A stretch of DNA of 64,000 nt from an uncultured Desulfobacter sp. (GTDB taxonomy: Bacteria > Desulfobacterota > Desulfobacteria > Desulfobacterales > Desulfobacteraceae), in NCBI GenBank assembly GCA_963665095.1, contig OY762069.1, positions 4,864,001 through 4,928,000 on the forward strand. The letters run 5' to 3'. This document shows, in pieces, positions 16,183 through 26,804 of the stretch (position 1 is its first letter; each line of letters starts with the position of its first letter). Below the pieces are notes generated by a model. The model worked only from the letters and a program-made list of their open reading frames with translations. It was not told where the DNA came from and searched no databases. Made by a program: the position numbers and the translations under genes.

Positions 16183-17118
16183 TCAGCAAAGCAGATGGAT
16201 GATGGATAGTGCCAGCAACACAATAAAAGTATGCTTCTGATATTTTTTAAACCATGTGATGCGGATCAGGCGGGTGCCGATCTGACCACCCACGATAACG
16301 CCACTGCAGGTGGCAAACAGCAGATAGGTGCCGTGGGGCCAGGATGCCGCTCCCAGCAAGACACTGATGCAGACCAGAAAAAGATAAAAAAGGATGGTGA
16401 CAAACATGATGAACAGACTGGTGGCCACAGCCAGGGAGGTCGGCATCTTCATTTTAATGGTCATGTGAGGGATCAGCCAGTCTGTGTTACCGATGCTTAA
16501 AAGCCCTGTGAAAAATGAGGAAAGAAGTACCACCGGGTAGCTTCTGGTGTAAATATTAGGGGGAATGACGGTCTTGTTCTCTTCAACAACAGGGGGTTGC
16601 GTCTTAAGGGACTGGATGGTTCTAAATAAAAGATAGGCCGCAATGACAATAAAGATGTGAAGAAGAAGCTCTTCGTAACCCCTGGACATGTAGAAGCTGG
16701 AGAAAAAGCCAAGGGTTACCCCTGCCAGAGCCATGGGGATAAAGGCTGCGGCCATTTTTACATCCACCATGCCGTTACAAAGATAGGTTAAAGACCCGGT
16801 TCCCTTGCCGGCAATCTGGGTGAATATGGATATGGCAACCGCTTCAGAAGGTCTGATCTCCAGAAATGTTAGCACCGGTATCCACAGAACACCCGCCCCA
16901 AGCCCTGTGAACATCACCATGGACCCCACACCAATGGCCAGGAAATGGACAAAAATAAATCTGGAAAAGCTCAATGGAATTTCGGTGTCCAGGAAAAAGG
17001 ACAGAAAAAAAACATATGCAGCGTCCACCAGTATCCAGAAGCCCAGGTATTTAGGCATTTTGAACAGCAGGGACCAAATTTTCATCAGCAGATCATCCTT
17101 ATAACGGCCAAAAGCCAT
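16183..17118 (-). CDS. Sulfite exporter TauE/SafE (TSUP) family membrane protein
   Basis: TGLGAGVLWIPVL...AVAIS and FFTGLLSIG...IP...AVATSL duplicated TSUP motifs; GGQIG; multi-TM. Alternative start at 17085 with an AAGGA RBS. Confidence 0.82.
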   Translation of the reverse strand: MAFGRYKDDLLMKIWSLLFKMPKYLGFWILVDAAYVFFLSFFLDTEIPLSFSRFIFVHFLAIGVGSMVMFTGLGAGVLWIPVLTFLEIRPSEAVAISIFTQIAGKGTGSLTYLCNGMVDVKMAAAFIPMALAGVTLGFFSSFYMSRGYEELLLHIFIVIAAYLLFRTIQSLKTQPPVVEENKTVIPPNIYTRSYPVVLLSSFFTGLLSIGNTDWLIPHMTIKMKMPTSLAVATSLFIMFVTILFYLFLVCISVLLGAASWPHGTYLLFATCSGVIVGGQIGTRLIRITWFKKYQKHTFIVLLALSIIHLLC

Positions 17119-17358
17119 TTGTCACGTTCCATTCTTAACTACTTTTCCGCATTCTATACAAGAAGTTCGGTCTGGACAAGTTTCTCTTTCATATAGTTCA
17201 TTTTTTCCTGCCAGTTTTCAGGTTTTGGCTGTTTTTGATCCAACAGGTGGCGGTGAAACTTACAAAAGAAGTACTTGACATGCCGCCGGGCAAAGACTAA
17301 TCATTTGCTATACGTTTGTATACGAATTCTTATCTTTCTTCAGCAAAGGATAGATTGC

Positions 17359-18699
17359 GTGGACTTCAAAGAGAAGCTCTTGGCATTCATTTTCGTCTCA
17401 GGTTTCATTCTTGCGATGAGCAACCCGGCTGCTTTATGTGAGGACGCCGCGAGCAAGTGTGTCCAATGTCATACCAATTTAAAAAAACTGATTCGCCTGT
17501 GCTGGGAGGTGGAGAAGCTCAAACCAAAGCCCGGGGCCAGTGCCGAAACCAGCGGTGAAGGGTGAGGCGGTCCGCTGGCTCCGTTGGAGCTATACCAGAG
17601 AATTTATGTTGCCTCCTCTTTTCTGGAGACTGAACACGGGCAGATTGCGTGCGAACAATGTCATGGTGGCCGGCCGGATGACGATAACTGGCAGACCGCC
17701 CATGAGGGACTGGTGACCGATCCAACATTGCTGGATGCAGACCGGGTGTGCGGTGCGTGTCACGGCGATATTGTTGGAACCGCAAAGAACAGCCTGCACT
17801 ATACCCTGGCGCCCATGTATCAGGCTGTATTTAACCGGGCAGGAGGGGCGTGCTGTGCGCCAAAGACTAAAACAATTTTAAAAGAATCCATGGACAGGCA
17901 CTGTGGTGCCTGTCACAGCAGCTGCGGGCAGTGCCATGTATCGCGGCCGGATTACGTAAAAGGCGGTTTTTTGGCCAAGCACCATTTTAAAGGGACCCCG
18001 CCCATGGATACCACCTGCGCCTCCTGCCACGGGGGCCGGGTTCACGGCGAATTCACCGGGACCAATGAGGATTTCAGCCCGGATGTCCATTTTGAAGATG
18101 AGGAGATGACCTGCCTGAACTGTCATGGTGCACAGGAGATGCATGCCGATGCCCAAAAGGTTTCAAGCCGGTATACACTACCTGAAAAACCAACGTGTAT
18201 TCAGTGTCATGAAGAGGTCCTGCAGCCTGATGGCAAAAATCTTTATCATACCAGCCATGGCAGTAAGCTGGCCTGCCAGGTCTGCCATTCCCAGGCGTCA
18301 AAAAGCTGTTTCTCCTGCCATGTGGGCACCGATAAAAAAGGGCTTCCCTGGTTTAAATGCAAAAAAACAGATGTCATGTTTAAAATTGGGTTGAATCCGG
18401 ACAAGAGAGACCAGGCACCGTTTGAATATGTCGTTGTCCGGCACACACCGGTTGTTCCTGACACGTTTAAATTTTATATCCCGTCCGGACTGGAGCAGTT
18501 TTCAAAAGCGTCCACCTGGAAGCGGGCTACCCCTCATAATATTATCCGGAAAACCAGTCAGACTCAGACCTGTAACAGTTGCCACGGCAAGCCAGATCTG
18601 TTTTTACAAAAAAAGGATTTAACCCCAGAGGGGATTGACGCCAATCAGAATGTCATTGTGCCTGATGACAGGATTCCTGGAAAAATCCTGGAAAAATAA
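17359..18699 (+). CDS. Exported multiheme cytochrome c (11 CxxCH), probable selenoprotein with Sec at in-frame TGA 17563-17565 (residue 69 of 446)
   Basis: GTG 17359 after an AAAGGA RBS; signal peptide MDFKEKLLAFIFVSGFILAMSNPAALC; CVQCH; then ...SAETSGEG-TGA-GGPLAPLELYQ continuing in frame into the 17584-18699 ORF, which has 10 more CxxCH; SECIS-like hairpin just 3' of the TGA. Confidence 0.85.
17576..17592 (+). promoter_or_regulatory. Bacterial SECIS-like hairpin
   Basis: TGGCTCC-GTT-GGAGCTA: 7-bp stem (one G-U) starting 10 nt after the TGA; the apical loop starts with G, 17 nt after the TGA. Confidence 0.7.
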
Positions 18700-18781
18700 C
18701 CGGAGACGACTTTTTGCCGCCGCCGGAAAATTGAAACCCGGACAGACATTGTTTTTGTCTGCCATAGAAAGGAGACAGGTT

Positions 18782-19354
18782 ATGAAAAGAATTTTTTGTT
18801 TTCTCACAACGGCATTGTTTTTCACTTCGCTGGCTTTTGCCGGAGGGTATGAGTACAAATCGAACGCAGATCATCTTGGCGGCGACCTGACACCGGAGAA
18901 TGCATTCAAAATGCTGGAAAAGGACCCGGAGCATACCTTCCTGGTAGATTGCCGTACCCGGGCAGAGTATCAGTTTGTGGGCCACCCTGAGAATGCATAT
19001 AATGTCCCCTTGCGGTTTTTAACCACTAAAGCGGGGAAAAAGGGATATACTGAAGCCATGAATGATAATTTCGGCAAAGACCTGCTCAGCCGGTTTAATC
19101 CAAAGACAGACACCCTGATCATCCTGTGCCGCTCCGGCAACAGAAGCTGTAAAGCCTGCAATGAAGCCATTAAGGCTGGATTTGACGAGGCAAAGGTGTT
19201 TAACCTCATGGGCGGTTTTGAAGGCGGGAAAAATAAAAACAAAGGCAGTGTGTATTACGGCAAAAGGTGGGCTGGCGGATGGAAGCTTGAAGGACTGCCC
19301 TGGACATACAATATGGATAAAAAATTGATGTATCAGCCCGATATCCAGGGATAG
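18782..19354 (+). CDS. Periplasmic rhodanese-like sulfurtransferase
   Basis: ATG 18782 after AAAGGAG; signal peptide MKRIFCFLTTALFFTSLAFA; LVDCRTRAEY..VGHP, active-site loop CRSGNRS, NLMGGFEG and GWKLEGLPW. Confidence 0.9.
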   Translation: MKRIFCFLTTALFFTSLAFAGGYEYKSNADHLGGDLTPENAFKMLEKDPEHTFLVDCRTRAEYQFVGHPENAYNVPLRFLTTKAGKKGYTEAMNDNFGKDLLSRFNPKTDTLIILCRSGNRSCKACNEAIKAGFDEAKVFNLMGGFEGGKNKNKGSVYYGKRWAGGWKLEGLPWTYNMDKKLMYQPDIQG

Positions 19355-19499
19355 AGATGTGCCCTGCATAACATGTAAGAGCAAATCGTATTGTGAAATA
19401 CGGGCACAGACCAGCGTTTGCTCCCTGGCCTTCTGCCTGAAAAGTGCATGACTGATGTTAACCACGCATCGTCATATCGAAGTTAATAAATTCAACAAT

Positions 19500-19597
19500 G
19501 ATGCACTCGTAAAAAGTCCGATTTTAGCAAATTTTTTAATATAAGCTACTGAATTTATATATAGTTGGTTTGCCTTTTCGACTTTTTACGGGCCATC
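19500..19597. mobile_element. 98-bp MITE-like non-autonomous element
   Basis: Terminal inverted repeats GATGCACTCGTAAAAAGTC / GACTTTTTACGGGCCATC (11-bp perfect core plus GATG/CATC ends), flanked by the direct repeat AACAAT (19494-19499 and 19598-19603); AT-rich non-coding interior. Confidence 0.75.
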
Positions 19598-19663
19598 AAC
19601 AATTAATGGCCGCAGATGAAATCAAAAGAGCAGATATTGCGGTCCAGAGCATGGTGGTCAGTT

Positions 19664-20548
19664 ATGAAACGCATTTTCGCAGTTTGGTTTTTTACTGTGG
19701 CACTGTCCTGCGTGCCGGACCTGTCATGTGCAATGGATGTCCGTTATCCCAAGCCTGAGTCAGAAGGTGACACACGCTATACCTATCACATTGCACTGCT
19801 CAGGCAGGCATGTGAAAAAACAGCTGACAAATATGGAAAAGTCAATATCATACCGGCTGACAAAACAATGAATGAGCTTCGCATGGTTAAACTGCTCATG
19901 GAGGGGAGTTTCGACATTGATGTGGTTTTCAAGCCCACGTCAAAGGATCTCGAATCCCGGCTTAATCCGGTACGGATACCTCTTGATAAGGGGCTTCTTG
20001 GGTGGCGGATATTTTTAATTAAAAAGGAAAATCAGCCTAAATTTTCAAGTGTCAGGACCATTGACCAGTTTAAAAAATTGAGCGTGGGGCAGGCCCGGGG
20101 CTGGGGCGACATCGCTATTTATGAGCATAACGGGATTAAGGTCGCCAAAGGGCCGGATTTCGAAAGTATGTTCAGCATGTTGCTCAGCGACCGGTTTGAT
20201 TATTTCGCCAGGGGGGTGGAGGAGGCCCCCCGCGAATTGGAGGACCGCCGGGAAAAGATGCCGGAACTGCATATTGAAGAGAGCATTGTTCTTCACTATC
20301 CTTTTGTCCGCTACATGTGGGTGGCCAACAGCCCTAAAGGAGACATGCTGAGGGCGCGTATCACCAAAGGGCTGGAGATCATGATCCGGGACGGCAGCTT
20401 TGAAAAGGCCTTTATACGATTTAAAGAGGATATTCTCAAAAAGGTTAATATGACCGGCCGCAGGGTGTTTGAACTGGAAAACCCTTTCCTGCCGGATACA
20501 GTGGATCTGAACCGGACCGAATTATGGTATAAGCCTTTATACCCTTAG
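19664..20548 (+). CDS. Periplasmic solute-binding protein (family 3-like)
   Basis: Signal peptide MKRIFAVWFF...; VRIPLDKGLLGWRIFLI, GQARGWGD and RFDYFARG are typical of this binding-protein group; start chosen at ATG 19664. Confidence 0.7.
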   Translation: MKRIFAVWFFTVALSCVPDLSCAMDVRYPKPESEGDTRYTYHIALLRQACEKTADKYGKVNIIPADKTMNELRMVKLLMEGSFDIDVVFKPTSKDLESRLNPVRIPLDKGLLGWRIFLIKKENQPKFSSVRTIDQFKKLSVGQARGWGDIAIYEHNGIKVAKGPDFESMFSMLLSDRFDYFARGVEEAPRELEDRREKMPELHIEESIVLHYPFVRYMWVANSPKGDMLRARITKGLEIMIRDGSFEKAFIRFKEDILKKVNMTGRRVFELENPFLPDTVDLNRTELWYKPLYP

Positions 20549-20653
20549 GGTGTTCCTTGGTTGATGGGCATAGGTCCGGTTTTCGTTCAGGCACTATGTG
20601 TGAAACATAAAATATCAGTCCTTCAGGATATCTGTTTTAACGGATGACAATAA

Positions 20654-22078
20654 ATGCTTTCTCAGGTTAGAAAAAAAGTTGCAGTTAAGCTGGCGTTCAT
20701 CCTTGTTTTAGCAGGTGTGATAATCAGTTCCCTTGCTATAATAATTATGACCGACGACAGTAAAAAAACATTGACGGGGTATTTGAACAGTTCTTTGTCA
20801 AATGCCGTAAATTTTTCTGAGTTTGTTTATTCTCAGCCACTGTGGGACCTTCACCATAAAGAGGTGACCCGCATGAATAAAATAATTTTACAAAATGAAA
20901 TGATCGTTGCAGTGAATATCTTTGACTCAAATCACTTTTTCAGCGGTCTGAAAAAAGTGACACCTGAAAAAAGAGCAGAAAAAGCCCTCGCCACGATCCA
21001 GCCCCTGGAGGAACCTTTCACCATTAACCCCGACAATACGGGTGATATAGAAAAAATTTCAGGAGAGATCCTCCATGAGAACGACCCTATCGGAAAATTT
21101 GAACTGTTTTACACAAAAGAATTTATTAATGATGCGGTTGCTTCTTTTAACATAAAGCTTTTGACCGCATTCCTTGTAAACGGTTTGCTGTTTATTGTTA
21201 TTATTTTTATTGCCGTAACCATAATAAATAAGCCCATTGTTGAGCTGGCGAGAGTTGCCCAGGGATTTATCCGGGAAAAGAATTTTCTATTTTCCATTAA
21301 GAAAAAAAAACGGAATGACGAAATCGGCCTGCTTTATAATGCGTTTGCCGATATGATCGCTCATGTCAAGGAGAAGGAAAAAGAGAGCATATATCTTCAG
21401 GCTCAAATGGAAAAAAACGTTCATCGTTTCAAAGATCTTTTTGATACACTGCAGGATGCCATTGATCATGAGCAGTACGCAAAAAGACTTATCCCTTCCT
21501 CGGATCAGGATGAGCTGTGCATGTCGTTAAATACCATGCTCAAAAAGCTCGAACTGGCAGATAATACCATGAAAAACTATGGGTGGCTGAAAAACGGCCT
21601 GGCTGAATTGAGTCGGACTATCAGCGGCGAACAGGATATTACGGGGCTTTCAGTCCAGGCTGTAACATTTATCGCCAATTATATTCAGGCCCGGGTCGGG
21701 GCGCTGTTTGTTCTTGATGACACCAGTCAGACCTATTGCCTGACAGCCGGCTTTGCCTTGAATGCCAGGGAGATAAAAAATTCAGAAGTCAGGGCGGGAG
21801 AAGGGTTGGCAGGACAGGTTGTTTTACAGAAAAAAATAGTGATTTTGGATACTGTCCCTCAGGGTTATTTCCACATTAAATCTTCTTTGATAGATGACCC
21901 CCCTAAAGCCATTGCCATTGTTCCTCTCGTATACGAAGAAAGAGTTAGCGGGATTCTTGAACTTGGGACCGCCACACCTTTTTCGGAAGCACAGATCGAA
22001 TTTCTCGAATCAGCCGGAGAATCTTTGGCTGTTGCATTTAATTCTTTAAGAGCCAGGAAAGAACCTTTTAAAGCCTGA
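20654..22078 (+). CDS. Membrane sensor-like protein: TM-periplasmic-TM-HAMP-GAF, no recognisable output domain
   Basis: Two TM segments; HAMP (KPIVELA...NDEIGLLYNAFADM); GAF (GEGLAGQV...VPLVYEERVSGILELG); stop about 10 codons after the GAF. Confidence 0.7.
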   Translation: MLSQVRKKVAVKLAFILVLAGVIISSLAIIIMTDDSKKTLTGYLNSSLSNAVNFSEFVYSQPLWDLHHKEVTRMNKIILQNEMIVAVNIFDSNHFFSGLKKVTPEKRAEKALATIQPLEEPFTINPDNTGDIEKISGEILHENDPIGKFELFYTKEFINDAVASFNIKLLTAFLVNGLLFIVIIFIAVTIINKPIVELARVAQGFIREKNFLFSIKKKKRNDEIGLLYNAFADMIAHVKEKEKESIYLQAQMEKNVHRFKDLFDTLQDAIDHEQYAKRLIPSSDQDELCMSLNTMLKKLELADNTMKNYGWLKNGLAELSRTISGEQDITGLSVQAVTFIANYIQARVGALFVLDDTSQTYCLTAGFALNAREIKNSEVRAGEGLAGQVVLQKKIVILDTVPQGYFHIKSSLIDDPPKAIAIVPLVYEERVSGILELGTATPFSEAQIEFLESAGESLAVAFNSLRARKEPFKA

Positions 22079-22129
22079 CCAACCCGGCGGTGTACAGAAT
22101 TGCTTTGGGCATACAGTGCGGGACCGGCT

Positions 22130-22909
22130 TTATTTCGATAGCGGATTATAAATATTGTCATCCATAATTTGTTTGATGACATTGGACTTATGTAATCGTG
22201 TCAGGGCCAGATCAGTCTGGGTTCTGACAAATTGCGGGACGTTTCTGTTATAAGCGATATGAAACCGGGAAACGCTGAAGGGTGTTTGCGCACAGTCAAT
22301 TTTATCGGCAAGTCCAAGCCCCTTGATAACAGTTCCCGTTCTGATAATATTGTCAACAATGGCGTCAATCCTGCCCAATAAAAGCAGTTTCACATTGGTT
22401 TCATCATCAGATGCCGGTTCCACTCTAATTCCTGGAATACTGGTATCCTTCAGGTATGGATATCCCAGAACGACGCCGACCTTTTTACCTTTAAATGATT
22501 CAGGTCCCTGATAGTCAAATATATTGTTCCGGTTCATCCAGACAACTGCAGGGATACTGTATATTTCCTTTTTACTGAAAATCAGTCCCATCTCTTCTCT
22601 ATCTTTTGAATAGATCAGGCCGAAATATGCATCGTATTTGTTGTTAAGTATATCGTTGATGCATCTTTTAATGGGAATTTCTCCAAATTCAGTGAGTTTG
22701 TACCTGAATTTTATCTTATCGTCTTCCAGCTCACGGTTCAGCGCTTCTAAAACCTTGAGCCTGAACCCCTGAAGGTTGCCGTTTTTATCAAGCCAGAACT
22801 GACCGGCTGATTTGTATACCGGCAGTTTAATAATTGTAGTCTGTGCCATAACACTGCCTGCAGTAATAATCAGGAACAGAACTAACGTGATGGAAACGGC
22901 TTGTTTCAT
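22130..22909 (-). CDS. Periplasmic transporter substrate-binding domain protein (family 3)
   Basis: Signal peptide; GKKVGVVLGYPY and LLLLGRIDAIV. Confidence 0.75.
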   Translation of the reverse strand: MKQAVSITLVLFLIITAGSVMAQTTIIKLPVYKSAGQFWLDKNGNLQGFRLKVLEALNRELEDDKIKFRYKLTEFGEIPIKRCINDILNNKYDAYFGLIYSKDREEMGLIFSKKEIYSIPAVVWMNRNNIFDYQGPESFKGKKVGVVLGYPYLKDTSIPGIRVEPASDDETNVKLLLLGRIDAIVDNIIRTGTVIKGLGLADKIDCAQTPFSVSRFHIAYNRNVPQFVRTQTDLALTRLHKSNVIKQIMDDNIYNPLSK

Positions 22910-23146
22910 TCTTTTTCCCCCTTTAAAGTAAAGGCAACGTTCAGGTCTGAATTTAAGCAGGGCTTAAGAAACAGCTTGATACCGAAAACCCTCCCTTTCC
23001 TGCGGCAGTTTGCAATGGAGGCGAATAAGAAAAATCAGGAACAGTAAAAAAGAGAGCTTCCCATACAAATTTTTAAGAATACATAGATATTAACGCGAAA
23101 TCGGCCATGATACAAATAAAATATTTGTCTGTATTTCTAATTAAGA

Positions 23147-23647
23147 CTATTCGGATGATCCTCTGGGGTGAAATGATCCGCCAAGGCGAGAAACCTCTTT
23201 CAGGACATTCTGAACAAGGTCATCAATCCGACCCTCAATCTCCGGCGTCAGGTGTTCGCTTAAACTTTCGAGATTCTTGGGCTCAATACCGATGATGGTG
23301 GTGTCAGGTACATGATCCAGGGCGTTGCAGAGGGTGAGCGCCTCAATGAGATCCACCTGGTGCAGGGAATTTTTGGCCAGAATTCTGTTGGGGATCTGAT
23401 CATGTTCCAGGCGGTGAAGGTCTCCCGGGTTTCCGTGGTTGAGTACGGTGTCCACCACAATAAGCCGGCCGGCATTTGAGATGACGCCTAATAAATTGAC
23501 ACCAAGTACCCCGCCGTCCACAATATCCACGTTATCGGAAAATTCATACTCTCGTTCTAGTTTTTCAACGACCCGGATACCTACGCCATCATCACTGTAA
23601 AGAATATTGCCAACGCCTAAGACCGTTATATTATTGATGTCCACCAT
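23147..23647 (-). CDS. Hydrogenase maturation endopeptidase (HyaD/HybD family)
   Basis: VLGVGNILYSDDGVG, DGG, IVVD and SLHQ. Confidence 0.93.
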   Translation of the reverse strand: MVDINNITVLGVGNILYSDDGVGIRVVEKLEREYEFSDNVDIVDGGVLGVNLLGVISNAGRLIVVDTVLNHGNPGDLHRLEHDQIPNRILAKNSLHQVDLIEALTLCNALDHVPDTTIIGIEPKNLESLSEHLTPEIEGRIDDLVQNVLKEVSRLGGSFHPRGSSE

Positions 23648-23670
23648 ATTATGTCCTGCTTAAAAAGTTT

Positions 23671-23700
23671 AGGGTTCCGGCATTATAGTGCCGGAACCCT
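23671..23700 (-). terminator. Stem-loop between the hydrogenase large subunit and the protease gene
   Basis: AGGGTTCCGGCA / TGCCGGAACCCT perfect 12-bp inverted repeat, followed on the - strand by AAACTTTTT. Confidence 0.6.
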
Positions 23701-23726
23701 GATTATTCAACCATCTGCCTGACAGA

Positions 23727-25364
23727 CTACACCACTTTTACCTCATAGGTCTGGTTGGTATGAGGATCAATCACATGAATGGCGCATGCAATGCACGGGT
23801 CATAGGAGTGAACGGTCCGCAGTACTTCCAGGGGCTGTGACGGATCAGCAATGGGGGTGCCGATCAGGGATTTTTCCACAGGACCTTTCTGGTTGTTGGC
23901 ATCGCTGGGGCCAAGGTTCCAGGTGGAGGGGACCACATACTGGTAATTTTTGATTTTACCGCCATCAATATCGATCCAGTGGCCCAACGCCCCGCGGGGA
24001 ACATCATTAAGGCCATATCCACGGCCTTTGTCCGGCATGGTCCAGGGCTGGTAGGTCTTTTTGTTGCCTGCGGCAATATTGGATTTAAGGGTTTCAATCC
24101 AGCCTTCCATGGCATCTGAGATAACCACGGTTTCCAGGCCGCGGGCTGCGGTTCTGCCCAGGGTGGAGAACAGAGCTTCTTTGCCGACGCCAAGGGTTTT
24201 CAGCGTGTAATTAACCAGTTTTTTTACATGATCCTGGCCCTGGGCATAGGCAACCAGAACCCGGGACAGCGGTCCGACTTCCGCAGACTTGCCTGCGTAT
24301 CTCGGGGCCTTGATCCAGGAGTACTTATCATCGGTGTTATAGGTGACTTCGCCCTGGATCGGTTTGGTCTCTCCATCAAACGGGTGTTTTGCCTCGCCTT
24401 TTTCATACCAGGCCCTGGTGACATCTTCGGTAATCTGGTTGGTGTCAACGGTGGCGTAGGAAAGGGCATCATCAACGATGCCGCTGGGCAGCAGGAGATC
24501 GTCATCCACATTTTTCTGGGGGAAGTCCCCGTATGCCAGATAGGTGTCGTTGTTACCGCCGATGGCACCCCAGTCCTTATAGAAAGAGGCCACTGCCAGC
24601 AGATCCGGAATGTAGACTTCATCAACAAAGGCCTTGGTCTCTTTCCAGATGGCCGTGTATTCGTCAATTCTTTCCGGGTTCAGGTCCTTAACACTGGTGA
24701 TACCGCCGACAACCAGAGACTGGGGATGGGGGTTTTTGCCGCCGAATATGGCGTGCATGCGGGCGGCTTTGGCCTGCAGCTTAAGCGCTTCCAGATAATG
24801 GGAGGCTGCCATGAGGTTGGCTTCTGCCGGCAGGTTATAGGCCGGATGGCCCCAGTATGCATTGTTAAAGGGACCGAGCTGACCGCTGTTGACAAAGGTT
24901 TTCAGCTTGGTCTGGACTTCTTTGAAGTAATCGGAATTCTGGGGTCTGCCGGAAACGTTCTCGGACAGTTTGGCGGTTTTGGCAGGATCTGCGGACAGGG
25001 CACTGACAATGTCCACCCAGTCCAGGGCATGCAGATGATAAAAGTGAACAATATGGTCATGCTGGAACTGGCTGCCGTGAAGCAGGTTCCGAATGATCCG
25101 TGCGTTTTCCGGGATCTCTATGTTGCAGGCCATTTCAACGGCCCGTACAGAGGCCAGTGCATGCACATAGGTGCACACCCCGCAGGAGCGCTGTACAAAA
25201 TGGTGGGCATCTCTGGGATCGCGGCCCTGGAGCATCATCTCAATACCCCTGAACATCTGGCCCGAACTCCAGGCATCGACGACCTTGCCGTTTTCAACTT
25301 CCACCTCAATTCTGAGATGGCCCTCAATTCTGGTAATGGGATCAACAATAATTCTTTTACCCAT
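23727..25364 (-). CDS. Periplasmic group 1 [NiFe] hydrogenase large subunit
   Basis: DPITRIEGH, L1 motif RSCGVC and L2 motif DPCIACAIH (Cys, not Sec), plus a cleavable C-terminal extension. Confidence 0.96.
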   Translation of the reverse strand: MGKRIIVDPITRIEGHLRIEVEVENGKVVDAWSSGQMFRGIEMMLQGRDPRDAHHFVQRSCGVCTYVHALASVRAVEMACNIEIPENARIIRNLLHGSQFQHDHIVHFYHLHALDWVDIVSALSADPAKTAKLSENVSGRPQNSDYFKEVQTKLKTFVNSGQLGPFNNAYWGHPAYNLPAEANLMAASHYLEALKLQAKAARMHAIFGGKNPHPQSLVVGGITSVKDLNPERIDEYTAIWKETKAFVDEVYIPDLLAVASFYKDWGAIGGNNDTYLAYGDFPQKNVDDDLLLPSGIVDDALSYATVDTNQITEDVTRAWYEKGEAKHPFDGETKPIQGEVTYNTDDKYSWIKAPRYAGKSAEVGPLSRVLVAYAQGQDHVKKLVNYTLKTLGVGKEALFSTLGRTAARGLETVVISDAMEGWIETLKSNIAAGNKKTYQPWTMPDKGRGYGLNDVPRGALGHWIDIDGGKIKNYQYVVPSTWNLGPSDANNQKGPVEKSLIGTPIADPSQPLEVLRTVHSYDPCIACAIHVIDPHTNQTYEVKVV

Positions 25365-25428
25365 AATAATATCCTTTCACATCAAACATGTTGAATTTTA
25401 GATTCTAAATGATGGTCCGCGTGTGTTT

Positions 25429-26370
25429 CTACATCTCTTCATAGAACGGTGTCATGTTGTCCCAGAAGTCCGGTTCACTGCAGCCAATGCAGGGGTGACC
25501 GGCCTGGATGGGAAAACTTGTGCCGTCGTTGAACTTCGCGGTGGGGCAATTATTATAGGTTTCAGGACCCTTACAGCCCATTTTGTAAAGACAGTATCCA
25601 AGCTCCGCTTCTTTGGAGCCGAATTCTTCCACAAATTTGCCTTCTTCATAGAAGTCCAGGCGCGGGCAGTTGTCATGAACGGTTTCGCCGTATGCGAACA
25701 TGGGTCTGCCGTAATCGTCAAGTTCTATCTCTTCATTATTCAGATACTTGACGATGGTACCAAGCAGGTTTAATGGGTTGAAAGGACAGCCGGGCAGGTT
25801 GATGGTGTCAATGCCGATGGCGTCTTTTACACCTTTATATCCGCCGGGATTCGGGGCGGCTGCAGACACACCACCATAGGCTGAACAGGTGCCTACACAG
25901 ATGGTGGCAGCTGCTTTGGGGATCACTTCCTTGGCAATGTCAAGGAATGTTTTTCCGGCCACTTTACCGTAAGCGCCGTTGTAACTGGTTGCGATGGCAC
26001 CTTCCACAACGCAGACAAATTTGCCGTTGTATTTCTCAACCGCTTCGTGCAAATTTTTTTCAGCCTGGTGACCGGCCGCAGCCATGATGGTTTCATGGTA
26101 TTCCACGGAAATGGTCTCCAGGATAATGCCGCCGACATCCGGCGTTCTTAAGAAAGCCTCTGAACAGCCGGTGCATTCAGAGAAGTGAAGCCATACCACC
26201 GGGGGACGTATTGCAGCCGCTTTCTCAATCTGCTCGGCTACCTGTCCCACACAGGAGTACGACAAGCCCATGGTTGCAGTCAGGGCCGTGCAGTACTTGA
26301 GAAAATCTCTTCTTGAGACCCCTTTTGATTCCAATACTTCATAAAACTTCTTGCTGGGATTTGTTTCCAT
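25429..26370 (-). CDS. [NiFe] hydrogenase small subunit, Tat-exported, no C-terminal membrane anchor
   Basis: Tat motif SRRDFLK; ECTGCSE, GTC, PGCP, HDNCPR, CLYKMGCKGP and HPCIGC; ATG 26370 follows GGAGG. Confidence 0.95.
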   Translation of the reverse strand: METNPSKKFYEVLESKGVSRRDFLKYCTALTATMGLSYSCVGQVAEQIEKAAAIRPPVVWLHFSECTGCSEAFLRTPDVGGIILETISVEYHETIMAAAGHQAEKNLHEAVEKYNGKFVCVVEGAIATSYNGAYGKVAGKTFLDIAKEVIPKAAATICVGTCSAYGGVSAAAPNPGGYKGVKDAIGIDTINLPGCPFNPLNLLGTIVKYLNNEEIELDDYGRPMFAYGETVHDNCPRLDFYEEGKFVEEFGSKEAELGYCLYKMGCKGPETYNNCPTAKFNDGTSFPIQAGHPCIGCSEPDFWDNMTPFYEEM

Positions 26371-26804
26371 AGCACCTCCATTGGTCGCTGTTATGATTTC
26401 AATCATAAATTGGGTTTATTATTCTAGGTTAGGTTCATTCGCTATAGCAAATTGATTGTTTAAATCTATATGATGAAAATAGATTGAATATCTCTATTTC
26501 TAAAATTTATAAAAACTGGCAGATCTCTTTTTGTGGGGGCAATATGGGATAGGTGTCAAATATTGACTTTTAACAGGCGCATTTTTGCTTGACTTCACAC
26601 TGTTTTATATATAGTAAAGTTACCTTATAAAGATATGCATAGCAAACAAATATATATAATATAATAAAATAGTTCGTTTGATATATTTGAAAGGGCATAT
26701 TAACTTAAGGTTGGCCTTTGAACTATGGCTGCAGAAAATCTGTTTGTGACCATCAGGGCGACATAGAAACAAGATGTAACTTTTTATTTATAAATGGGTT
26801 TTCC

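Follow-up and report, generated by a model that had tools for sequence, protein, structure and literature searches.

An 11-heme cytochrome with a very likely selenocysteine is paired with a secreted rhodanese in an uncultured Desulfobacter

The window analysed here, a stretch of 64,000 nucleotides from an uncultured Desulfobacter sp. (assembly GCA_963665095.1, contig OY762069.1), encodes an 11-heme c-type cytochrome with an in-frame TGA codon, followed by the gene of a secreted rhodanese. A conserved TGA and a covarying hairpin of the selenocysteine insertion sequence (SECIS) type indicate that the codon very likely specifies selenocysteine (Sec), and the comparison of gene neighbourhoods points to cytochrome and rhodanese as a real and widespread two-gene module. 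We give a slightly better than even chance to the proposal that this module is a molybdenum-free periplasmic reductase of sulfane sulfur, acting on thiosulfate or polysulfide and fed by the rhodanese; we infer its catalytic steps. In the sources searched, the pair is uncatalogued as a selenoprotein. The module consists of the following features:

17359..18699, plus strand: 11-heme c-type cytochrome, precursor of 446 aa, GTG start, TAA stop, TGA read through
17563..17565, plus strand: in-frame TGA, probable Sec codon in the motif GEG-U-GG, TGA in 137 of 143 loci
17576..17592, plus strand: SECIS-type hairpin with a 7-bp stem and a GUU loop, by covariation and a fixed stem rule
18782..19354, plus strand: secreted single-domain rhodanese of 190 aa with the loop CRSGNRS (Cys116), by PF00581 and conserved linkage

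Under translation table 11 the cytochrome gene is split into a 68-codon piece (GTG at 17359 to TGA at 17563) and a 10-heme piece, while read-through of the TGA yields one protein of 446 aa with 11 CxxCH motifs and a signal-peptide-like N-terminus. Residue numbers given here refer to the precursor; those in alignment A3 are lower by 25. The rhodanese matches PF00581 (E 1.5e-14), has a hydrophobic N-terminus, and its Cys116 opens the six-residue loop CRSGNR. The gap of 82 nt between the cytochrome and the rhodanese ATG (18782) holds a hairpin that has no U-tail, and no terminator-like site was found on its plus strand. The gene positions, the divergent orientation of tauE upstream, the 82-nt gap lacking an obvious terminator and the signal-bearing single-domain rhodanese with CRSGNRS were all found as given in the initial annotation of this DNA when the sequence was read again.

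For the comparison, 146 homologous loci were gathered: 2 came from a scan of genome contigs with a single protein, 17 from a search at family level (positive in 17 of 151 genomes), 47 from one at phylum level (positive in 45 of 401 genomes) and 80 from metagenomes (the best 80 of 545 matches). Three duplicates were dropped, leaving 143 distinct loci, and many of the metagenome loci are close kin, so that the counts are not independent. The site is TGA in 137 loci and Cys in 1, and in 5 the contig ends before the site or heme 1; TAA or TAG was found in none of the 143. The TGA of the window is unchanged in contigs of four sequencing runs from three studies, one run possibly being the source sample. 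In 15 aligned sequences of the hairpin, 93% of the cells are paired (30–47% in slid controls), 13 cells have changed on both sides, and the level of covariation was matched by none of 500 shuffles; the compensatory changes swap the encoded residues, for example APLE for EPLA. By a fixed rule, a perfect stem of at least 5 bp occurs in 105 of 126 distinct sequences compared with 2.9% of other in-frame positions, and it is absent from the Cys homologue L019. The Pro-Leu at the hairpin loop is coded CCG-TTG in all 105 such loci, compared with backgrounds of 29% and 14%. The persistence of TGA across homologous loci together with the covarying hairpin thus argues strongly for Sec, as had been suggested in the initial annotation.

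Were the TGA a true stop, the locus would encode a one-heme peptide and a separate 10-heme protein. Databases do annotate it as a stop, with all top matches beginning after the TGA, and the hairpin region of the window by itself folds no better than shuffled sequence (z −0.6 to −1.5), which also counts against our assignment. We nevertheless regard a true stop as extremely improbable. The codon is always TGA, the reading frame is kept across it in every case, an in-frame ATG within 24 codons exists in just 11 of 137 loci, the hairpin is missing from L019, and homologues that have Cys at the site are continuous. Of 136 loci, 131 have a hydrophobic signal-like stretch ahead of heme 1 and none has one after the TGA, which means that the part encoded downstream could not by itself be exported and matured. 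Intact full-length representatives were drawn from 1.84 billion proteins (206 at E<1e-30, the best 150 of which were taken); among the representatives listed, 29 aligned as full-length intact rows, 14 with Cys at the site and 15 with neither Sec nor Cys. In one cluster from Tissierellia, some records give the gene as pieces of 80 aa and 350 aa and others give 442 aa with W at the site, as a TGA codon would lead one to expect. The host genome, a single contig of 6.9 Mb, carries tRNA-Sec, selA, selB and dsrA. selA was found in 57 of the 60 other carriers, but also in 379 of the 401 phylum genomes, and its near-universality makes this co-occurrence non-discriminating.

Two side observations belong here. 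L019 (G145:C257), the one Cys-type locus, lies on a 4-kb contig and groups apart from the other members of that family of genomes; it has lipoprotein-like signals and is possibly a transferred or mis-binned contig. The host genome has tRNA-Pyl and tRNA-Sec (G000:C1:900717-900790 and 5485637-5485734), a dual code expansion of the kind described in marine deltaproteobacteria (PMC8318568).

The linkage to a rhodanese was scored with profiles made from the neighbouring proteins, and 13 of their representatives were confirmed as PF00581. A rhodanese lies directly downstream in 104 loci, is fused to the C-terminus in 3 and lies upstream in 5, one of which (L139) is an N-terminal fusion. Of the 124 loci with flank, 112 thus have the rhodanese next to the cytochrome or fused to it, and 19 further loci are untestable; these are raw counts, uncorrected for background rhodanese density. 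Among the 63 genome-derived loci it is adjacent or fused in 58, absent in 2 and untestable in 3. The hydrophobic N-terminal stretch is present in 102 of 104 partner rhodaneses. At least four dissimilar rhodanese types occupy the partner slot, varying by branch: the single-domain type of the window (14 genes with 61–100% identity, those of L008 and L022 included), a second single-domain type with about 25–30% identity to the first, tandem SseA-like proteins and tandem CYxGQT proteins. The C- and N-terminal fusions sit on different branches. Since the linkage persists through replacement of the partner, it probably reflects function rather than inertia, and the neighbourhood check that had been called for bore out the proposed pairing. 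Weighing against it, the rhodanese is absent in 5 flanked loci and found only further away in 7, of which L092 is a boundary artefact. A predicted complex of the Cys-type cytochrome of L019 with its own rhodanese scored 0.00, which counts neither for nor against the pairing. Natural fusions with tandem rhodanese domains were seen in L016, L017, L039, P0127 and P0132 (C-terminal) and in L139 (N-terminal).

The cytochrome itself is a remote relative of octaheme tetrathionate reductase (OTR), belonging to an OTR-like superfamily by heme spacing and modelled fold. No NCBIfam model reached its cut-off for the whole cytochrome, its two pieces or six relatives, NF049953 (GUxG motif) had no match in the host genome and none in the controls either, and a search of the PDB with the single sequence returned nothing, whereas the family profile did match. 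An AlphaFold2 model from a 146-row alignment reached a predicted local distance difference test (pLDDT) score of 94.6 and a predicted template modelling score of 0.90; a model from 13 sequences (pLDDT 37.8) was discarded. The best structural match of the 146-row model is OTR (Foldseek E 2e-3, probability 0.99; VIA Z 8.5 over 263 residues, the next match having 4.1), and in a profile-profile alignment hemes 3–9 are in register with OTR hemes I–VII (98.6%, E 5e-16). The core fold and this register are shared with OTR of Shewanella (SO4144, PDB 1SP3, TIGR04315), but the identity is 17–18%, and the cytochrome has two extra N-terminal hemes and one extra internal heme, a Sec supplied by the N-terminal loop, a rhodanese partner, and neither the Lys ligand to heme II nor the NN(F/Y)C motif in its family. 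TIGR04315 gave no match for the cytochrome of the window, and two relatives scored 21 and 30 bits against a cut-off of 375.

Sec69 lies between heme 1 and heme 2. Heme 4 (C182/C185/H186) is the counterpart of OTR heme II, Arg160 (93% conserved) falls within one residue of the OTR Lys position, and Glu231 aligns with OTR Asp150. We take Cys64, Asp150 and Lys153 to line the catalytic pocket of OTR. Heme II of OTR is catalytic and ligated by Lys56 (PMC3769277, PMC11024163). On our reading, Sec69 would be carried by the N-terminal loop into the pocket of heme 4. Arg227 is present in all 87 rows of the Sec type, in 11 of 14 with Cys and in 6 of 15 with neither residue.

With such a core, an OTR-like enzyme that acts on a small anion (tetrathionate, nitrite, hydroxylamine or sulfite) at heme 4, with the rhodanese only protecting, repairing or activating Sec, has to be considered. 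The heme register and the conserved Arg and Glu residues around the catalytic heme motif would suit it, and OTR and related enzymes are described as promiscuous (PMC13510729, PMC3769277). We hold this reading to be unlikely: Arg stands in place of the OTR Lys ligand, the OTR family model also matches in 25 of 61 carriers, the host among them, and the rhodanese link survives partner replacement and fusion. We consider it still less likely that the cytochrome is a non-catalytic electron-transfer protein with Sec or Cys as axial heme ligand or redox sensor. Spare His residues for 11 hemes comprise nine that are near-invariant and a tenth at 74%, which leaves room for a Sec ligand, and many intact homologues have another residue at the site, one of them His. 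MmcA of Methanosarcina, an OTR relative set beside the cytochrome by its description, offers a precedent: it forms a distinct clade, has seven hemes, lacks the catalytic heme motif and its Lys, is encoded within the Rnf operon and serves as an electron conduit (PMC11024163). The cytochrome retains the counterpart of the OTR heme II motif, and mere electron transfer explains neither the rhodanese partner nor the coupling of Arg227 to Sec or Cys. A Sec-dependent reductase of sulfane sulfur remains the reading that we prefer.

True OTR proteins occur in some of the same genomes as separate genes. The host genome encodes one (G000:C1:2254179-2255408; L147:1264-3291, minus strand), which lies above the TIGR04315 cut-off and has an N-terminal cytochrome c3-like part. 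Its gene has an in-frame TGA at the Cys64 position (NNY-U); Sec-bearing OTRs have Sec exactly at the position of Cys64. Of the 38 OTR matches listed in 61 genomes, 19 have a TGA, and a conserved hairpin of the GAGGCTCGTTG type comes after it in most of the sequences read. Sec-bearing OTR appears in PMC13188914 as a GenBank annotation only. A further frame of 385 codons in the host (G000:C1, about 890700-891900, minus strand) has several CxxCH motifs and no TGA and is weakly similar to the cytochrome core (E 8e-9); weak OTR-like matches of a similar kind were seen in MccSep genomes.

The only characterised multiheme selenoenzyme in the literature searched is MccSep of Geobacter sulfurreducens (2026; ExtKL, GSU2937-2936; NF040886; PDB 9WT8). 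It is described as a polysulfide reductase with five hemes that uses Sec325 and the heme-ligating Cys239, is inactive on thiosulfate and accepts selenite as a second substrate (PMC13510729); Sec and heme together are thus able to reduce polysulfide. Like the cytochrome, MccSep is a periplasmic multiheme c protein with one Sec, its annotation is split at the UGA, a rhodanese gene (ExtH) lies in its cluster, and a conserved Arg is proposed near the site in both. However, the cytochrome has 11 hemes and its Sec69 lies in an N-terminal loop, MccSep has 5 and its Sec325 belongs to an Ig-like domain at the C-terminus, and the heme-ligating C239 of MccSep is without conserved counterpart in the cytochrome. 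NF040886 matches in 44 of the 401 genomes, but neither the cytochrome nor any protein of the host genome. The family profile matches 9WT8 over heme motifs only (E 0.055), and MccSep is not in the result lists of the fold searches, although its presence in those libraries is not established. Judged by the family model and the profile match, MccSep is an analogue of the cytochrome and not a homologue. The analogy with the Geobacter ext cluster that had been drawn earlier stands in so far as ExtKL and the rhodanese-like ExtH occur together in this cluster (PMC5877670), and falls where it would make the cytochrome an ExtKL homologue.

Of the 401 phylum genomes, 45 have the cytochrome family and 44 have MccSep, and none has both (4.9 expected); likewise, MccSep was not found in any of the 61 carriers, for which nearly all candidates were scored. 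Five MccSep genomes with weak matches to the family profile (at most 102 bits, over the core only and without TGA) were not accepted as members. This exclusion at genome level is suggestive only and counts for less in view of its naive P of 0.004, kin not being independent, and of the overlap at the family level, which is as expected (5 versus 4.5): five families hold both, in different genomes. Table 1 of PMC13188914 (2026), with 119 selenoprotein families, lists ExtKL, GSU2204 and Sec-bearing OTR as heme c selenoproteins, and the cytochrome family is absent from this table. Nor is the family described as a selenoprotein in the literature searched, of which subscription papers are mostly outside the coverage.

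The second substrate of MccSep and the tie of the ext cluster to selenite would also fit a module for selenium handling, in which selenite or selenosulfide is reduced, or selenium delivered, and the rhodanese serves as the carrier of selenium. At L137 and L141, which come from two genomes of a single genus, selA is found upstream of the cytochrome at a distance of about 1.3 kb. No selenium genes were found near the other loci examined, and the member of the family in Dethiobacter alkaliphilus is induced by thiosulfate; we regard selenium handling as very unlikely.

This member, DealDRAFT_1917, is described as having 10 hemes and no signal peptide and as adjoining the rhodanese DealDRAFT_1918 (PMC10376724). 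Its 98%-identical orthologue MCW3489883.1 (supplement of PMC10376724) falls in the cluster of P0401, a 354-aa protein of strain AHT1 that has 36% identity to residues 80–436 of the window protein and scores 407 bits with the family profile, and the P0401 record begins just after the Sec position. By these matches DealDRAFT_1917 is a member of the cytochrome family. According to PMC10376724, it was significantly up on thiosulfate compared with ferrihydrite, D. alkaliphilus has no DsrAB and no molybdopterin reductases, and DealDRAFT_1917/OMD50_RS07060 was proposed as SirA/Otr-like determinant of sulfur-compound reduction; the main text of that paper has no occurrence of "selen". Strain Z-1002 has the gene and reduces thiosulfate but not S0 (PMC10376724), which tilts the likely substrate towards thiosulfate. 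Together with the OTR-like core, the thiosulfate induction makes a role in sulfur redox chemistry, as supposed in the initial annotation, the most likely one.

The direction of this chemistry could also be the opposite. The cytochrome would then oxidize sulfide or rhodanese-bound sulfur in a manner similar to TsdA or SoxAX, reversibly or as one branch of disproportionation. His/Cys heme enzymes work oxidatively, and MccSep has been related to the reverse of what they catalyse (PMC13510729). Both S0 and thiosulfate are disproportionated by AHT1, levels of the Z-1002 orthologue went up during Fe(II) oxidation, and dsrA was found in just 32 of the 61 carriers. The closest fold is nevertheless a reductase, the induction was seen during thiosulfate reduction, and the formate-dehydrogenase-like molybdopterin genes and cytochrome b genes beside some loci (15 and 10) suit a supply of electrons, so that an oxidative role is improbable in our view, if less so than the other alternatives.

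For the reductase that we favour, the first step is strongly supported: SelB would read the hairpin and insert Sec69, which would keep the remaining ten hemes in one chain with the signal peptide and heme 1. Rhodaneses take sulfane sulfur onto their active-site Cys, and with thiosulfate as donor sulfite is formed. According to this general chemistry, Cys116 of the rhodanese would accept sulfane sulfur, with release of sulfite if thiosulfate is the donor. Sec69 would then attack the persulfide near heme 4, aided by Arg160, Arg227 and Glu231, and, by analogy to MccSep, the heme chain would reduce the Se-S adduct and HS− would leave. The electron donor is probably lineage-dependent and is not fixed by the neighbourhood. 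In Wolinella, Sud is a rhodanese-type sulfur carrier for PsrABC. Both systems would thus be periplasmic reductases that are fed sulfane sulfur by a rhodanese; PsrABC, in contrast, is a molybdopterin enzyme unrelated to multiheme cytochromes.

A number of findings sit uneasily with this mechanism. The Lys56 ligand and Cys64 of OTR are not conserved in the cytochrome family, there is no conserved Cys outside the heme motifs and the Sec site, and thus nothing like C239 of MccSep. The covariation between Sec69 and Arg227 is weak (z 4.4, 358 rows). The loop contains neither Sec nor Cys in 22 of 34 correctly anchored intact rows (15 of 29 in the other alignment), which suggests that some members of the family can do without this residue. 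In Dethiobacter, other cytochromes were more strongly induced than DealDRAFT_1917, and more of the Z-1002 protein was seen under Fe(II) oxidation (PMC10376724).

The family is present in about 11% of the phylum sample, with named relatives in Bacillota, Chloroflexota, Spirochaetes and Campylobacterota and with Dethiobacter alkaliphilus, Desulfitibacter alkalitolerans and Gudongella oleilytica as cultured carriers. Given that 32 of 61 carriers have dsrA, the module is not tied to sulfate reduction. The cytochrome is almost always misannotated as a truncated, signal-less protein and often misnamed "thiosulfate sulfurtransferase". Certain anaerobes lack every known reductase for the thiosulfate or sulfur that they reduce. 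We tentatively propose, at somewhat less than an even chance, that the family is a second, independently evolved heme-selenocysteine sulfur reductase, built on an OTR-derived scaffold that has lost the Lys/Cys site, carries Sec on an N-terminal loop and uses rhodanese persulfide as sulfur source. It would be the missing molybdenum-free thiosulfate or sulfur reductase of anaerobes like Dethiobacter, as common in the phylum as MccSep and replacing it genome by genome, and it would have escaped notice because gene prediction truncates it at the UGA. If true, this would give sulfur respiration a further marker gene and reveal a new active-site architecture of heme and selenium.

The genes further out give a different picture. 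They comprise:

16183..17085, minus strand: TauE/SafE-family transporter (PF01925), outside the cytochrome–rhodanese module and part of an ech-tauE-hydrogenase locus
17275..17304, plus strand: sigma70-like promoter match 5' of the cytochrome, by consensus only, at a frequency here no higher than in shuffles
17207..23157, no strand: probable inserted block, missing at the same locus in relatives, with cytochrome, rhodanese and three more open reading frames
23147..26406, minus strand: small and large subunits of a [NiFe] hydrogenase with its maturation protease, a neighbour by way of the insertion site and no conserved partner

The transporter matches PF01925 (E 4e-27, 95.7 bits against a cut-off of 32.6), and its orthologues favour the ATG at 17085 (300 aa) over 17118 as start. 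The initial annotation had included TauE in the module as carrier of substrate or product and had named the hydrogenase as a possible electron source. A TauE orthologue (73–83% identity) is present in 18 of 25 genomes of the genus and the cytochrome in 5 of 25. The TauE of the window matches no other of the 143 cytochrome loci, 108 of which have at least 1.2 kb upstream, and is the only TauE among 102 scanned neighbour representatives (of 123 listed). Conversely, at 13 other TauE loci, of which 11 belong to the genus and 2 to G066, there is no cytochrome or rhodanese within about 1.5 kb; tauE adjoins an enoyl-CoA hydratase gene in 7 of these, and a hydrogenase maturation gene in 4 by protein and in 1 more by DNA. 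The similarity of the window DNA to L179, L184, L186 and L189 ends at about 17190-17206 and resumes at about 23158-23171 in L179, L184 and L186. These breakpoints indicate that a block of about 6 kb with the module most likely entered an ech-tauE-hydrogenase locus that was already there and came to separate tauE from the hydrogenase maturation gene, which would explain the nearness of the hydrogenase. No hydrogenase gene was found in the 143 loci, just 36–38 of which have 3.5 kb of flank, nor in two regions of 19–20 kb around close homologues.

Judged by these neighbourhoods, TauE and the hydrogenase are bystanders of the module, and a conserved three-gene unit with TauE is largely refuted. 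That TauE is nonetheless the dedicated carrier and the neighbouring hydrogenase the donor could be argued from the divergent tauE in the window genome, and some TauE-family gene is found in at least 55 of 61 carriers, so that an unlinked one could serve. With none of the 13 other TauE loci holding the module, no second cytochrome locus matching this TauE, no other TauE among the neighbour representatives and the block being an insertion, we consider this version highly improbable. Neighbours that recur at other cytochrome loci are a sigma54/response regulator cluster (31 loci), the formate-dehydrogenase-like and cytochrome b genes mentioned above and cytochrome c maturation genes (8 loci).

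The three further open reading frames of the block (19616-22909) encode a protein of 310 aa that has no Pfam hit, a HAMP-GAF protein without kinase domain and a family-3 solute-binding protein; they have 43% G+C compared with 51–52% in the flanks and were not found beside other cytochrome copies. Between the rhodanese and the next gene, inside the block, lies an AT-rich element of about 95 nt (19499-19592), of which the genome has five more partial copies with 85–93% identity and at which assembly graphs branch. Finally, a membrane-anchored variant with 13 hemes occurs in L084, L094, L110, L115-L117, L119, L122 and L129. It is followed by cytochrome b and formate-dehydrogenase-like genes and preceded by ResB/CcsA, with the rhodanese upstream and divergent, and this gene order suggests that the locus possibly encodes a complete chain from formate to sulfur.

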